From a virus (taxonomy: Duplodnaviria; Heunggongvirae; Uroviricota; Caudoviricetes): a DNA stretch of 31,156 nucleotides. Below the pieces are notes generated by a model. The model had not been told where the DNA came from, did not search any database, and was given only the letters and a program-made list of their open reading frames with translations. The first letter of the stretch is position 1, and each line of letters starts with the position of its first letter. Below, piece by piece: positions 12,869 through 23,984 of this stretch. The position numbers and the translations under genes were made by a program. The stretch lies in the IMG/VR virus record IMGVR_UViG_2778261417_000015, positions 1-31,156 of that record. One strand, 5' to 3'.

Positions 12869-13621
12869 TTAGTCATGTTTAAATCCTGGATTCCCTATAG
12901 AATTTGCCTCGAAGGATTTTTGAATCTGATAGTGCTCAATTTCCTGTTTAATGTTAGTGATTTCATCTTTAAGTTTTTCATTATCTGCGTAGGCTTGCGC
13001 TAAATCCTTCTCTAGATCAAGAATTTTATTGTTTTGCTCTTTAACCATTTTATCCGAGTGAATCGCCTGTTCGCTAAAGCGTGTTGATGATTCCTTCAGG
13101 GCTGTTTGTGCTTTAAGTAGCTCTTCTAATTCCAGCTTGAGTTTATCCCGTTCTGCAGTAATCTCACCCATCCTCTCCTGAGATTTCACAATACTTTCAC
13201 GCATTTCTTGTATTTCTTTCTCTGCCCCAGCCTTGAATCGATTATATGTAACGTCCCGTTTTGCCCTATATCTCTCCACACTGATATCAGCAACTAACGC
13301 CTTCTTGCGTCGAATCGCCATCAATACTGAGGTTCGTGAAATAGGCTTAGACTGCAAAGCAGTAAATTTCTCGTTGATGATTGGCAAAGCAATTGCCAAA
13401 AGTATAGCAATTAGAAGAGGAAGCAGAAAAATAATTGGATATGTATTGCTTATAAAGGTCAGCCTTGATTCGATTTTCATTTCACTGAAAAGCAAAACAG
13501 CCACAGCCTTCCAATTGCATGCAAACCAAGACAAGATAAAGACACCATAGAAAGGGCTTTTGAATCGCTCTGTAGATGTTTTTTGAACTGAAAAGTAAAT
13601 TTCTTTTATTGATTCCCACAT
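12869..13621 (-). CDS. Membrane protein: two predicted transmembrane helices plus long coiled coil (250 aa), opposite strand
   Basis: Hydrophobic segments (FYGVFILSWFACNWKAVAVLLF; YPIIFLLPLLIAILLAIALPII) followed by heptad-rich charged sequence. Strongly AT-rich. Orientation opposes flanking phage genes. Confidence 0.6.
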   Translation of the reverse strand: MWESIKEIYFSVQKTSTERFKSPFYGVFILSWFACNWKAVAVLLFSEMKIESRLTFISNTYPIIFLLPLLIAILLAIALPIINEKFTALQSKPISRTSVLMAIRRKKALVADISVERYRAKRDVTYNRFKAGAEKEIQEMRESIVKSQERMGEITAERDKLKLELEELLKAQTALKESSTRFSEQAIHSDKMVKEQNNKILDLEKDLAQAYADNEKLKDEITNIKQEIEHYQIQKSFEANSIGNPGFKHD

Positions 13622-15964: not shown

Positions 15965-16101
15965 AAAAGGAAGCCATTGCAGCACTCAAAACTCGCTGGC
16001 AGCGCCAACGCCTGTACCGCTTCCCCGGCTCAGTCCTGACCTATTACCGAATCATCCATAACGCAGCCCGTCTAATTCAGAAAGCAGGAGCCACGCAATG
16101 A
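15961..16101 (+). CDS. Small hypothetical protein (46 aa), translationally coupled
   Basis: Hand-translated ORF (MKKEAIAALKTRWQRQRLYRFPGSVLTYYRIIHNAARLIQKAGATQ) with ATGA overlaps at both ends, to the ninG stop and the Q-like start. Confidence 0.4.
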   Translation: MKKEAIAALKTRWQRQRLYRFPGSVLTYYRIIHNAARLIQKAGATQ

Positions 16102-16787
16102 ATACGCAATATCTTGAGTTTGTTCGACAACAGCTCATCGTGGCAACCGCTGACCTGAGCGGAGCGACGAAAGGGCAACTCATAGCTTTCGCTGAGAACG
16201 CGCAATTCACCGCGACGGCGCGCTGCCGGGGCCGGAAAAAAGTATTCGACAAGGATAAGCAGCGCATGGTGAACCCGGACGGCCCGCCGATGAGCGGCAG
16301 CCAGTCGCGCGCCAAAGGCTCATCAATCGCTCTGGTAAGCCCGGTAGAGTTCAGCACCGCATCCTGGCGACGCGCTGTTTTGTCACTGGAAGAACATCAG
16401 AAGGCCTGGCTTCTGTGGAACTACAGCGAGAACATCCGCTTTGAGTATCAGGTGGCGATCACTCAGTGGGCGTGGGCAGAGTTTCGTGAACAGCTCGGCG
16501 TGAAGAGGGTGGCGGGCAAGACGATGGAGCGCCTGAAGAAACTGATATGGCTGGCGGCGCAGGACACAAAAGAAGAGCTGGCAGGGCGTGAGACGTACGA
16601 ATACCAGGTGCTGGCGTCGCTGGTTGGCGTAACACCAAAGAACTGGTCAGAGACCTTTACGGACCACTGGATGGCGATGAGACGCATCTTCCTGAGCCTA
16701 GATAGTGGCGCTTTATTGCAGGTAACACGATCACGTTCACAACAAAAGGCGACAAACTCTCATGAAAGTCTTGCAAAACTGGATTGA
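16098..16787 (+). CDS. Late-gene antiterminator Q-like protein (229 aa)
   Basis: Assigned by position: last gene of the nin region, followed by a candidate promoter, strong terminators and the lysis cassette. Sequence resembles the recalled phage antitermination Q family, unverified. Confidence 0.55.
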   Translation: MNTQYLEFVRQQLIVATADLSGATKGQLIAFAENAQFTATARCRGRKKVFDKDKQRMVNPDGPPMSGSQSRAKGSSIALVSPVEFSTASWRRAVLSLEEHQKAWLLWNYSENIRFEYQVAITQWAWAEFREQLGVKRVAGKTMERLKKLIWLAAQDTKEELAGRETYEYQVLASLVGVTPKNWSETFTDHWMAMRRIFLSLDSGALLQVTRSRSQQKATNSHESLAKLD

Positions 16788-18038: not shown

Positions 18039-18511
18039 TTTACGCGTTCGTAAAGCGCTACTGGCTGCAGTTGATGGTGATTGCGGTAATCTGCGTACTG
18101 GCGTTTTTCGTGAACTACTACCGCGACAACGCCATCACCTATAAAGACCAGCGCGATAAAGCTCAATCACTTGCAGAGCAGCAGCAGGACACCATTAACG
18201 ACATGCAGGTACGCCAGCGCGACGTTGCTGCACTGGATACCAAATACCTAAAGGAACTGGCAGATGCCAAAGCTCAGAACGATGCTCTTCAGCGCAAGCT
18301 TGATAATGGTGGTCGGGTGCTCGTCAAAGGCCGATGTCCAGTGCCAACCTCAACCGAAACCGCCAGCGCCTCCAGCATGGGCCATGATGCCACCGTCGAA
18401 CTCTCTGACGTTGCTGGACGAAACGTTCTCGGTATCCGAATCGGGATCAAGAAAGACCAGTCAGCCTTGATGGTGCTGCAGGAGTACATCAACACGCAGT
18501 GCCTTAAGTAA
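18035..18511 (+). CDS. Rz: Rz i-spanin (158 aa)
   Basis: N-terminal transmembrane helix, coiled-coil periplasmic domain, GTG start overlapping the endolysin stop, and an embedded Rz1 ORF. Confidence 0.7.
   Translation: MIYAFVKRYWLQLMVIAVICVLAFFVNYYRDNAITYKDQRDKAQSLAEQQQDTINDMQVRQRDVAALDTKYLKELADAKAQNDALQRKLDNGGRVLVKGRCPVPTSTETASASSMGHDATVELSDVAGRNVLGIRIGIKKDQSALMVLQEYINTQCLK
18264..18470 (+). CDS. Rz1: Rz1 o-spanin lipoprotein, embedded in Rz in another frame (68 aa)
   Basis: Signal peptide with lipobox (LIMVVGC) and a proline-rich mature region, entirely inside Rz in a different frame. Confidence 0.65.
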   Translation: MPKLRTMLFSASLIMVVGCSSKADVQCQPQPKPPAPPAWAMMPPSNSLTLLDETFSVSESGSRKTSQP

Positions 18512-18515
18512 ATGA

Positions 18516-18544
18516 GCCTCGCCATCGTGCAGGGCTTTTTTTGT
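18516..18544 (+). terminator. Rho-independent terminator after the lysis cassette
   Basis: GCCTCGC-CATCGT-GCAGGGC followed by TTTTTTT; near-identical to the terminator at 16852. Confidence 0.5.
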
Positions 18545-18571
18545 AACTAGAAGACGAAGAAGGAAGTAACC

Positions 18572-18955
18572 ATGTTTACAGTAAAAACCATCATCAACGG
18601 CGTAACGCATATCTGCGAAATGCCTACGTTTACAGTGGCACGCGCAGACTCAGAGCGATTTGACGACATCCTCAAGCTGACCAATGACCATTCCAATCCT
18701 GACTTTGCTATCTGGCTGCCGGATGTGTATGCCGATCCAGAATGCAAAAACGCACTGCAGGAAGAGGAGTTGATTGTCAGTGAGCGCGACGGCGTATTGG
18801 ATCATGAAGCCATTGCTGTCCTGATTGAAGACTTCGAAAGCCCTGAGCATGCGAAGAAACGCGCCTTTGATGGCATCCGTTACCAGTTCATCTACCCCGG
18901 CGATCAGGTTTACGTGATGAACTCTCACGGCTCGACCATCGAAACAGTTAAGTAG
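18572..18955 (+). CDS. Hypothetical protein (127 aa)
   Basis: Intact ORF with GGAAG-type RBS. No recognisable motif. Confidence 0.5.
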   Translation: MFTVKTIINGVTHICEMPTFTVARADSERFDDILKLTNDHSNPDFAIWLPDVYADPECKNALQEEELIVSERDGVLDHEAIAVLIEDFESPEHAKKRAFDGIRYQFIYPGDQVYVMNSHGSTIETVK

Positions 18956-19053
18956 TCATTACAGAAGCTCTTCACTAAGGGGCTTCGATAATGGATATAC
19001 CCTACAGCGGATAATCAACCAAATATCCCCACAAGCGGATAAAGAGGCTCTCA

Positions 19054-19257
19054 ATGTCCGACATCTACATCATCAAACTGACTACGAACGACGGCGGCGA
19101 GTACACAGGCAAGATGTCACGACGTCAGCCTGAGCTGGTTAATGGCTTCGTGCCGCTGGCGACCGAGACGGGCGAGTGGCTGTATTTCGCTCCGGCCGAT
19201 GTGAAGTGCGTGCAGTTCACCCCGATATCAGTAGTTGAAGATGGGGCTGCGCAATAA
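19054..19257 (+). CDS. Hypothetical small protein (67 aa)
   Basis: Intact ORF with plausible spacing. No recognisable motif. Confidence 0.4.
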   Translation: MSDIYIIKLTTNDGGEYTGKMSRRQPELVNGFVPLATETGEWLYFAPADVKCVQFTPISVVEDGAAQ

Positions 19258-19305
19258 GCATGGCATCTACGATTGGAGATTTACGAGTCCAAGGTAATGC
19301 CATGC
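19258..19305. repeat. 9-bp perfect inverted repeat between convergent genes
   Basis: GCATGGCAT (19258-19266) and ATGCCATGC (19297-19305) separated by 30 nt. Confidence 0.5.
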
Positions 19306-19320
19306 TGGTCACTTAGTTGC

Positions 19321-19539
19321 TTAGACCTTCTTATATGAGATAGATCGTCCAAATGGGGGATATGTAGAAGTTGAATCTTTAATTTCATAAGTAGCTACAA
19401 CATTTCCCGCAGCGTCTAACTCACGATAAAGATATTCGTCTGTATCCTGGCCTTTTCGGGCTCCTTTCCAGTTAGAAGAGACAAGCTCTAAGGTGTGATC
19501 GTCTGGGATACCGATTTTCTGTTTGTATTCATCACTCAT
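19321..19539 (-). CDS. Hypothetical small protein on the opposite strand (72 aa)
   Basis: Intact AT-rich ORF convergent with the upstream genes and divergent from the terminase small subunit gene. Confidence 0.5.
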   Translation of the reverse strand: MSDEYKQKIGIPDDHTLELVSSNWKGARKGQDTDEYLYRELDAAGNVVATYEIKDSTSTYPPFGRSISYKKV

Positions 19540-19561
19540 GTGAAGTCCTTATAGGTTAATT

Positions 19562-20134
19562 ATGGCACTCACCGACAAACAAGAGATGTTCTGTCGCGAG
19601 TACCTCATCGATTTAAACGCCACGCAAGCGGCTATTCGGGCGGGGTACAGCGCAAAGACAGCTAACCGCACAGCGTCCGAAAACCTGTCAAAACCTGACA
19701 TCCAGTCCAGAATTGCCGAACTTAAAGCGCAACGCAATGATCTGGTTGGCATAAATGCGACATACGTCCTGAATCGTCTCGTTGAGATTGACCAGATGGA
19801 CGTGCTCGACATCCTCAAAGACGACATGAGTCTGAAGCCAGTAAGCGAGTGGCCTTCATCCTGGCGAAGATATTTGAGCGGCTTCGATGTGGCTGAGATG
19901 TTTGAAGGTCGTGGGGAGGAGCGTGAGATGGTCGGGCTGCTCAAGAAAATTAAGTGGCCTGATAAAGTCAAAAACCTCGAGCTGCTCGGGAAGCACATAG
20001 ATGTGATGGCTTTCAAAGAGCAGGCCACTCATGAACACACAGGCAAGAACGGCGGGCCTATCGAAATGGCGACGCTGACGAAAGAAGAATATAAGGCTGC
20101 CCGGCGGGAGATGCTGGAGGATGACGACTGCTGA
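19562..20134 (+). CDS. Terminase small subunit (190 aa)
   Basis: Terminase small-subunit signature near the N-terminus (KQEMFCREYLIDLNATQAAIRAGYS), directly upstream of the large subunit. Confidence 0.8.
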   Translation: MALTDKQEMFCREYLIDLNATQAAIRAGYSAKTANRTASENLSKPDIQSRIAELKAQRNDLVGINATYVLNRLVEIDQMDVLDILKDDMSLKPVSEWPSSWRRYLSGFDVAEMFEGRGEEREMVGLLKKIKWPDKVKNLELLGKHIDVMAFKEQATHEHTGKNGGPIEMATLTKEEYKAARREMLEDDDC

Positions 20135-23056: not shown

Positions 23057-23063
23057 CCCCACA

Positions 23064-23984
23064 ATGTCGCGCAAGTCCGTCAGCAAGATGGAGCGCGACA
23101 TTGAGGGCCGGTATTACGCGATAAAGGTGGCGTTGAAAGCGCTGTTCGATCAGCGCATGACCGGACGAGAGCGCGAGGTAAACAGCCATAACTGGCATTT
23201 CCTTTGCCACGACCACGGCGAGGATATGCGGCTGTACCAGGTCAACGCCGGCAAGTTCATCTATGACATGTCGGCACAGGAACTGGCTGACCTGCTAGAG
23301 GCGGTGCAGGGCATTCTCGATGATTACCTGCTGGAAGGTGGCGAGCAAAACCTGTGGGCGATGGATTACGTCGTCGCTGAAGCGCAGCGCGGCACGCTGG
23401 AGGCATTCAATAACCTCGCGCAGCAGTCGCAGGTATACGCAAGCCAGACGACGCTGCAGCAGATTTTAAGCAGCACCGGTCACCTTAATCAGGTGGCGGC
23501 GGCCAGGCTGACAACGTTCAGCGACTGGAAGGTCATCAGCGACACTGCCCGCGGCGACCTGACCAACATCATCACCGATGCCGTAGCTCGCGGGGTGAAT
23601 CCTCGCGAGACTGCAAGCGTAATCAGTAAGCGCCTCGATGTGAGCATGTCGAAGGCGAAAAACATCGCTCAGACTGAGCAGGTAGGAGCGCTGCGGCAGG
23701 CGCAGTGGAACGAAACGGACTGGGCTGCTGACCGGCTGGGGCTGAATACCGGCCTGATGTGGTTATCAGCGCTAAAGCCGACGACACGCACCTGGCACGC
23801 CAGCCGTCACGGACTCGTTTACACCACCGAAGAGGTACGGGACTTCTACGCCGAGAACGGCAACCGGTACAACTGCTATTGCAGCCAGATTCCGGTGCTA
23901 CTCAACGATGACGGCAGCATTTTCAATGAAGGCCTGGAAGACAAGTTGGTGAAAGAGCGCAAAGGTTGGAAAGGTTCTAAGTAG
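23064..23984 (+). CDS. Head morphogenesis protein, Mu gpF / SPP1 gp7-like (about 306 aa)
   Basis: Follows the portal gene; sequence resembles the recalled minor-head MuF-like family. The track ORF begins inside the portal gene, so the first ATG after the portal stop was used. Confidence 0.6.
   Translation: MSRKSVSKMERDIEGRYYAIKVALKALFDQRMTGREREVNSHNWHFLCHDHGEDMRLYQVNAGKFIYDMSAQELADLLEAVQGILDDYLLEGGEQNLWAMDYVVAEAQRGTLEAFNNLAQQSQVYASQTTLQQILSSTGHLNQVAAARLTTFSDWKVISDTARGDLTNIITDAVARGVNPRETASVISKRLDVSMSKAKNIAQTEQVGALRQAQWNETDWAADRLGLNTGLMWLSALKPTTRTWHASRHGLVYTTEEVRDFYAENGNRYNCYCSQIPVLLNDDGSIFNEGLEDKLVKERKGWKGSK

Follow-up and report, generated by a model that had tools for sequence, protein, structure and literature searches.

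Lambdoid prophages carry morons, independently acquired cargo genes that are usually bounded by small hairpins. The bor gene of phage lambda reportedly belongs among them, as a reverse-strand gene just downstream of Rz/Rz1. Here we focused on the interval between the spanin genes and the small terminase gene (terS) of a lambdoid prophage, contained in a stretch of 31,156 nucleotides (Caudoviricetes; IMG/VR record IMGVR_UViG_2778261417_000015, positions 1 to 31,156) that we refer to as the window. The interval (18572-19539) holds three small open reading frames (ORFs): two plus-strand ones, ORF1 and ORF2, and a minus-strand one, ORF3. An inverted repeat lies between the convergent ORF2 and ORF3. 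We found this region to be an ordinary moron slot of a lambdoid prophage, reaching from the spanin gene to terS. By analogy, lambda bor can be regarded as the closest counterpart of ORF3 in position and orientation, the two being unrelated in sequence. Bor and other lambdoid morons share with ORF3 a place between the lysis and packaging modules, an orientation against the late operon, a GC content below that of the flanks, and a patchy presence, and lambdoid morons likewise have a 3' hairpin of their own. Unlike Bor, however, ORF3 lacks a signal peptide and a lipobox, and the two proteins are not similar in sequence; the ORF3 gene abuts terS (22 bp) rather than cos, and consensus scans gave no ORF3 promoter.

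Taken together, our results make it reasonably probable that the interval is a mosaic slot in which ORF3 is a separate low-GC moron, that the inverted repeat serves as the 3' terminator or stabilizer hairpin of ORF3, and that the ORF3 family may have a role in methylation, restriction, or defense conflicts. The reality and conservation of the genes, the linkage between hairpin and ORF3, the turnover and inversion of the hairpin loop, and the hotspot behavior of the slot were all observed in the comparisons described below.

All three ORFs are real, conserved genes, each preceded by a plausible Shine-Dalgarno sequence. An initial annotation of the window had listed two plus-strand ORFs and one AT-rich minus-strand ORF, and we recovered all three at the positions it gave. 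It had also treated them as genes of unknown function rather than known packaging accessory proteins, in line with our scans of Pfam, NCBIfam, PADLOC, and PHROG, which returned no named function for ORF1, ORF2, or ORF3. A literature search by accession numbers and PHROG identifiers found no paper. Neither the phage records nor the complete Escherichia coli genomes contained a sequence covering at least 80% of the interval, and the same arrangement was present, identical, in several draft assemblies (loci L064-L068 and L070; the loci compared here are designated by L and a number). The features of the slot are as follows.

18572-18955, plus strand: ORF1, 127 amino acids, PHROG 1453
18964-18986, plus strand: boundary hairpin GAAGC...GCTTC, then GATAATGG, directly after the ORF1 stop
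18995-19042, plus strand: two tandem 18- to 20-bp elements, TATAC/TATCC-N8-GGATA, directly 5' of the ORF2 ribosome-binding site
19054-19257, plus strand: ORF2, 67 amino acids, PHROG 6581
19257-19306, minus strand: perfect 10-bp inverted repeat with a 30-nt loop, between the convergent ORF2 and ORF3 stops
19321-19539, minus strand: ORF3, 72 amino acids, low GC, no Pfam, PHROG, NCBIfam, or PADLOC match
19540-19561, no strand assigned: divergent intergenic region, 22 bp between the ORF3 and terS start codons
19562-20134, plus strand: terS, small terminase (Terminase_2, PF03592, E=2.5e-40), right edge of the cargo slot

ORF3 occupies the gap between the lysis and terminase genes, against the late genes, in every enterobacterial phage locus that we recovered, usually 22 bp from terS. 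Its neighbors are mosaic and consist of ORF1 and ORF2, a DUF4145 gene, Rha-like genes, a kinase/phosphatase pair, or a metallopeptidase. Where ORF3 is missing upstream of a homologous terS, the slot is filled otherwise, by reverse-strand DUF6953 and YodC genes in L003 and by a gene for a 171-amino-acid hypothetical protein in L081. The suggestion that the interval is a cargo hotspot is thus borne out by other reverse-strand genes in the same slot, and the synteny comparison with related phages that the initial annotation had proposed gave the same picture of mosaic neighbors and of a slot refilled where ORF3 is absent. ORF3 shows the variable filling between genes of related phages that is expected of a moron, as well as a deviant base composition, with a GC fraction of 0.39-0.40 over 19250-19474 versus 0.50-0.58 in the flanks. 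As for a terminator of its own, the hairpin is linked to ORF3 and is canonical in some lineages; in the window it has a long loop and a weak T tract. Such an architecture is that of a textbook moron hotspot and is not surprising, and the wider interest lies in the ORF3 family.

The inverted repeat and its link to ORF3

The arms of the repeat (AGCATGGCAT and ATGCCATGCT, at 19257-19266 and 19297-19306) are 100% complementary, with 30 nt between them. The repeat starts with the final base of the ORF2 stop and lies in the 63-nt gap between the ORF2 and ORF3 stops. It had been described as a perfect 9-bp repeat with a 30-nt loop; the repeat is real and the loop length was right, but the stem is one pair longer, at 10 bp. 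Internal pairing of the loop (TTGGA/TCCAA) gives a two-tier hairpin, with predicted folding energies of -24.0 kcal/mol (z=-3.49) on the minus strand and -26.1 kcal/mol (z=-2.91) on the plus strand. An Rfam scan of 18400-19700 returned nothing above threshold. In first-order Markov simulations of the 31-kb window, a perfect 10-bp repeat with a loop of 3-40 nt turned up 1.34 times on average, and 59% of the simulations contained one or more; the window itself holds two other repeats of this size class. The more specific pattern CATGGCA-N8-36-TGCCATG occurred once in the window versus 0.05 times expected. Given that the size of the repeat is unremarkable by chance, the case for a function rests on comparison with relatives.

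For this comparison, all loci were oriented on ORF3 and the sequence 3' of the ORF3 stop was examined. The core arms ATGGCA/TGCCAT were found 3' of ORF3 in six lineages, namely, A (the window type), B, L036, L037 (phiES15), L038, and L004 (Pantoea). Among these lineages the spacer before the arms, the loop, and the distal flank all differ, the distal flank to the point of being unalignable, and the loop measures 10 nt in L004 and 28-33 nt in the others. Between the window and the other core-arm lineages, the proportion of synonymous differences (pS) in ORF3 was 0.44-0.75 and was saturated for L004, L036, and L037. The core arms were thus kept despite high to saturated synonymous divergence, indicating that they are under selection. 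These observations and the family scans answer the doubt, raised in the initial annotation, that the repeat might not be conserved and the ORFs might turn out to be known packaging accessory proteins.

The repeat is absent from L003, which has ORF2 and a 79%-identical terS with other cargo, and in which an unrelated compact hairpin (AGGGCGA/TCGCCCT) stands after ORF2. Loci that lack ORF2 or have it in decayed form (L036, L037, L004, and L001) do carry the repeat. Since it is missing without ORF3 and kept without an intact ORF2, the repeat travels with ORF3 and not with ORF2 or terS. Read in the ORF3 sense, the distal arm is followed by CTTTTTTC in L036, TTTTAAT in L037, and TTTTTTAT in L038, and no lineage compared has a T-run on the plus strand after the repeat. 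A Klebsiella lineage has the same architecture with a wholly different stem sequence (7-bp stem AGCCTCA/TGAGGCT with a structured 24-nt loop), and ordinary terminators made of a GC stem and a T-run stand at the same place after ORF3 homologues in L039, in ∼47 marine loci, and in L056.

These data bear on the proposal that the repeat is a bidirectional intrinsic terminator for both the plus-strand ORF2 transcript and the minus-strand ORF3 transcript, as had first been suspected. Although the repeat lies exactly between the convergent stops, folds stably on both strands, and has a counterpart in L003, where a different compact hairpin separates ORF2 from the convergent gene, we consider this unlikely. 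The element is linked to ORF3 alone, being found without ORF2 and missing where ORF2 occurs without ORF3; T-rich tails appear only in the ORF3 sense and in some relatives; and a consensus scan found no terminator on either strand. An A-tract upstream combined with a T-tract downstream, as a bidirectional terminator would have, is not seen either, the flanks in the ORF3 sense being GTGACCAG and CTTATTG. Moreover, because no promoter-like site was found in 18400-19700, the late plus-strand transcript must cross the repeat to reach terS, and efficient termination on that strand would block expression of the packaging genes downstream (terS, terL, and portal).

Conservation of the arms could also mean that they form a sequence-specific DNA or RNA recognition site, bound, for example, by a regulator, by a packaging factor, or by a nuclease or recombinase mobilizing the ORF3 cassette. 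ATGGCA/TGCCAT is near invariant in six lineages in which spacer, loop, and distal flank cannot be aligned, homology of the ORF3 module ends at the distal arm, and ORF3 homologues elsewhere are integron cassettes that end in folded attC sites with variable loops. We nevertheless regard such a site as improbable. Arm spacings of 10 to 33 nt would not be tolerated by a fixed dimeric protein that binds duplex DNA, so that the earlier idea of a protein-binding site is unlikely for double-stranded DNA, and the variable spacing (10 and 28-33 nt) is better accounted for by a folded hairpin than by a duplex site of fixed spacing. In addition, the Klebsiella stem is wholly different within the same architecture, other lineages carry ordinary terminators, and the arms have no attC core and no recombinase nearby. 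Three further interpretations of the arms were discarded: as an attC site, since GCATGGCAT/ATGCCATGC has no AAC/GTT core (RYYYAAC/GTTRRRY); as a sigma-54 promoter, since there is no TTGC -12 element; and as a target-site duplication of the terS start (ATGGCAC), for which the basis was a 6-mer only.

We therefore return to the repeat as the 3' hairpin of ORF3. Like rho-independent terminators, it is a stable stem directly after a stop codon, with T-rich tails in some relatives; unlike them, the hairpin in the window has a 30-nt loop, a weak T tract, and arms whose sequence is conserved rather than covarying. As for expression, we infer a transcription pattern in which ORF3 would be expressed, most likely during lysogeny, from a promoter that probably lies within the 5' part of terS. 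The transcript would end at the conserved hairpin or be stabilized by it, and the hairpin would also prevent antisense transcripts from entering ORF2 and the lysis genes. The repeat would thereby act as an RNA (or single-stranded) hairpin of ORF3 and not as a bidirectional terminator.

The loop itself (19267-19296) is reverse complemented between lineage A (the window, L030-32, L064-68, and L070) and lineage B (L001, L029, L033-35, L048, L063, and L069). It matches at 22-23 of 30 positions when inverted versus 7 of 30 when compared directly, a score that none of 100,000 shuffles reached. Alignment with the window breaks inside the loop in all 16 of the ORF3-carrying E. coli genomes. Opposite loop orientations in the two lineages might indicate that the repeat flanks a miniature invertible switch, in which the 30-bp loop flips between two states, and we find this scarcely credible. 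Orientation follows the nucleotide lineage without exception, with a synonymous divergence (dS) in ORF3 of ∼0.7 between A and B, so that one old event is enough; known invertible segments driven by recombinases are far longer than 30 bp; and other lineages have unrelated loops. Neither of the marks of an inverton, both orientations within one lineage and a site-specific recombinase, was observed, and no invertase or recombinase gene lies in the neighborhood. On sequence comparison, one ancient inversion of the hairpin loop appears sufficient, and nothing points to an active switch.

Such events have been attributed to template switching at hairpins, as in E. coli quasipalindromes (PMC7202029), and hairpin-associated small inversions are common in noncoding spacers of chloroplasts (PMC12928735). 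By analogy, an inverted loop of this sort is what one would expect if template switching acted on a hairpin formed in vivo. As in those cases (PMC12928735; PMC7202029), related sequences have a short spacer between arms in opposite orientations; here, however, the spacer belongs to the 3' hairpin of a prophage gene and is fixed between lineages rather than polymorphic. The ORF3 hairpin is a clean natural case of a frozen stem whose loop has been replaced or inverted, and it can serve in considering the evolution and mutation of terminator-like hairpins in phages.

The ORF3 protein and its gene start

ORF3 is the most conserved of the three genes. The ratio of nonsynonymous to synonymous substitution rates (dN/dS) was 0.008-0.042 in comparisons with relatives that are heavily diverged or saturated at synonymous sites, a sign of very strong purifying selection. 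Two DNA lineages, with differences at 21-24 of 219 positions (∼10%), encode an identical 72-amino-acid protein. The protein is predicted to be soluble, with a mass of 8 kDa and an isoelectric point (pI) of 5.2, and the structure model confidently assigns it an alpha+beta fold with one N-terminal helix and a four-stranded antiparallel sheet. Members of the family share the signature G-x-D-T-D ... D-S-T-S-x-Y-P-P-F.

An exhaustive profile search yielded 103 representatives of the ORF3 family, mostly stand-alone proteins of 70-90 amino acids. The domain is also fused at the C terminus of PIN_8 nucleases and, in other proteins, after a CxxC...CxxC zinc ribbon. Scans of genomes, viruses, and metagenomes gave 130 ORF3-family loci. 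In the phage collection, ORF3 was found only in Cronobacter phage phiES15, where it is unannotated, and among complete E. coli genomes it was present in 16 of 5,426. None of 79 family members scanned singly matched a Pfam model, and comparison of the family profile with the PDB returned only beta-hairpin noise from OspA. Kinship with the other slot occupants DUF6953 and YodC, or with DUF2188, a neighbor of ORF3 homologues in type I restriction loci, was dismissed because profile comparison shows no relation.

ORF3 and terS are adjacent in 21 loci; in the window they are divergent, with 22 bp between their start codons. A near-palindromic block in this region (19540-19561; CCTATAAGG in the window and CCTTAAGG in relatives) supplies the Shine-Dalgarno sequence on both strands. 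Since the two starts are only 22 bp apart and both Shine-Dalgarno sequences lie inside this gap, the ORF3 promoter should be located within the terS coding sequence. A perfect TTGACA ∼150 nt upstream of ORF3 was rejected as a promoter element, as a matching -10 element is missing and the coding of terS accounts for the sequence.

The first 30 codons of terS (19562-19651) have a pS of 0.16-0.27 versus 0.70-0.76 in the remainder of the gene, that is, 3-4 times lower, and a low pS at the 5' end of terS was also found in L003, a relative without ORF3. This may reflect an embedded signal (the ORF3 promoter, a pac-related site, or a translation-start structure) or a recombination junction.

ORF1, ORF2, and other features of the prophage

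ORF1 encodes an acidic protein (pI 4.56), mostly beta, with a confident structure model, and it matches PHROG 1453 (function unknown) across its full length. Its homologues form 87 clusters across Enterobacterales, nearly all unnamed, and in the prophages of this order the gene is located just after the spanin gene. A 67%-identical copy stands directly 3' of the spanin gene in Salmonella prophages that have a different holin, endolysin, spanin, and terminase; compared with this copy, the proportions of nonsynonymous (pN) and synonymous differences were 0.22 and 0.67, respectively (ratio, 0.32). At the position of the boundary hairpin that follows ORF1, the relatives L048, L003, L029, and L077 carry other stems (GCCATTC/GAGTGGC, GATGGG/CTCATC, and GGCCACC/GGTGGCC plus a T-run). 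The element at 18964-18986 is an intergenic boundary hairpin that relatives also have, with changed stem sequences.

ORF2 is likewise acidic (pI 4.40) and matches phrog_6581 (E=6.9e-32; function unknown). Its homologues fall into 282 clusters, and among the 120 listed, every named one is called "hypothetical" or "uncharacterized". The gene has a pN/pS of about 0.33-0.42 and is a pseudogene with in-frame stops in L001 (3109-3296), carries an "internal stop" annotation in L081 (2533-2751), and is reduced to remnants in L063 and L069. In lineage B prophages, ORF2 is decayed to a pseudogene or remnant while the neighboring ORF3 is perfectly conserved. By this pattern, ORF2 is weakly constrained and dispensable. 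One could extend it to the notion that the slot includes decaying or nonfunctional filler among its ORFs, which would fit the pseudogenization of ORF2 in several relatives and its weak constraint. That, however, is very unlikely: the ORF2 of the window is intact, as it is in 282 clusters, purifying selection is clear for ORF1 and above all for ORF3, and both of these have confident structure models.

The direct repeat ahead of ORF2 consists of two elements, at 18995-19014 and 19023-19042, 28 bp apart, the first of which is an imperfect palindrome. The palindrome TATCC-N8-GGATA occurs once in the window versus 0.00 times expected. It was found upstream of ORF2 in 13 loci, with two copies in L003 and L029, and is always linked to ORF2; the arms are conserved in relatives and the spacers variable. 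These tandem elements form a conserved ORF2 leader and could be an operator pair or RNA hairpins. ORF1 and ORF2, which are co-oriented with the late operon, are most likely transcribed together with it, and small hairpins flank each of them, as is usual for morons.

Elsewhere, the window is organized as a lambdoid prophage, with the recombination genes RecT and YqaJ, a CI-type repressor, and the DnaB helicase among its early and replication genes. The antiterminator Q lies at 16098-16787, its family having been assigned via a gene of identical length in L068 and L070. Q is followed in order by the holin, the endolysin, the spanin genes Rz (PF03245) and Rz1, the cargo interval, terS, the large terminase, and the portal gene. 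A reverse-strand ORF of 250 amino acids at 12869-13621 (minus strand), 3' of the DnaB helicase gene and with a Pfam match that is only coiled-coil-like, may be another moron. The Rz stop is directly followed by a weak hairpin and a seven-T run (18514-18542), where a subthreshold Rfam match to isrJ (E=0.28) probably mirrors the terminator-like shape. The stop of the portal gene is immediately followed, at 23062-23103, by an inverted repeat with perfect 11-bp arms (CAATGTCGCGC) and a 20-nt loop.

ORF3 homologues and restriction systems

The genomic contexts of ORF3 homologues provide the leads to what the protein may do. In ∼47 loci (L005-L028 and L095-L121; e.g., L013, 2039-6210), we found an island made of an HsdS-like gene, a DUF2188 gene, an ORF3-like gene, HsdM, a gene for a 281-amino-acid protein, and HsdS. 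The ORF3-like protein in these type I islands is 63% identical to that of the window, and the island is near unchanged in Vibrio, Acinetobacter, Marinomonas, Pseudoalteromonas, Pseudomonas, and other gammaproteobacterial genera, suggesting that it is a horizontally mobile type I restriction-modification module.

Two ORF3 homologues, in L006 and L027, are single integron cassettes bounded by repeated GCCTAAC...GTTAGGC attC sites, the former beside an IntI-type integrase. Compared with these cassettes, which have true attC sites, the window copy has neither an attC core nor an integron integrase and is a prophage moron. In L006 (2791-3219) and L113, a small gene for a CxxC...CxxC zinc ribbon stands directly upstream of the ORF3 homologue in the integron cassette, and a zinc ribbon and an ORF3 domain are fused in other organisms (proteins P0086 and P0114). 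This association points to the zinc ribbon and the ORF3 domain as functional partners.

Other lineages adjoin genes for C5, N6_N4, or D12 DNA methylases, for a putative AbiC, or for GIY-YIG, Mrr-like, HNH, or T5orf172 proteins. A DNA methylase (N6_Mtase, N6_N4_Mtase, DNA_methylase C5, or MethyltransfD12) lies at most two genes away in 7 of 23 homologue lineages, defined as clusters at 75% identity. Such neighborhoods suggest that the ORF3 family is a component of methylation, restriction, or other defense conflicts, in which the protein would bind a partner. As to the role of the protein, we infer, as a tentative and rather doubtful possibility, that the family is a new partner-binding module that modulates or counteracts methyltransferase or restriction complexes, or else a sensor domain for PIN-like nucleases. 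If this is true, the carriers of the module would be prophages, in which it is a moron expressed in the lysogen, along with type I restriction-modification islands and integron cassettes.

Several results weigh against the combined interpretation of ORF3 as a moron with its own 3' hairpin and a role in such conflicts. The methylase figure of 7 of 23 lineages carries no background rate and is hence a lead only, and none of the ORFs scanned in the window prophage encodes a methylase. A consensus scan of the 170 nt upstream of ORF3 gave no sigma-70-like promoter, and the scan of 18400-19700 for intrinsic terminators was negative on both strands. Measured against a canonical intrinsic terminator, defined as a GC-rich stem with a loop of 3-8 nt followed by at least 5 T, the hairpin of the window falls short in its 30-nt loop and its weak T tract (CTTATTG in the ORF3 sense). 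A 10-bp repeat is, moreover, not rare by chance in 31 kb, and the arms show nearly no covariation (one inner pair in L038), which is equally compatible with a sequence-specific recognition site.

Even so, ORF3 represents an unnamed and extremely constrained family of small proteins with no Pfam entry, found in prophages, type I restriction-modification islands, integron cassettes, and fusions to nucleases, a profile typical of uncharacterized components of defense or antidefense. Among known systems, phages encode small antirestriction or restriction alleviation proteins, such as Ral of lambda, Ocr of T7, and ArdA. ORF3 differs from these in that no similarity in sequence or fold was found, in being only mildly acidic (pI 5.2), and in lying opposite the late genes rather than in an early operon. 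As a tentative lead, it shares with Ral, Ocr, and ArdA the character of a small, soluble, phage-borne accessory protein, and the likeness to antirestriction proteins extends to its homologues, which are embedded in type I restriction-modification operons and stand beside several families of methylases.

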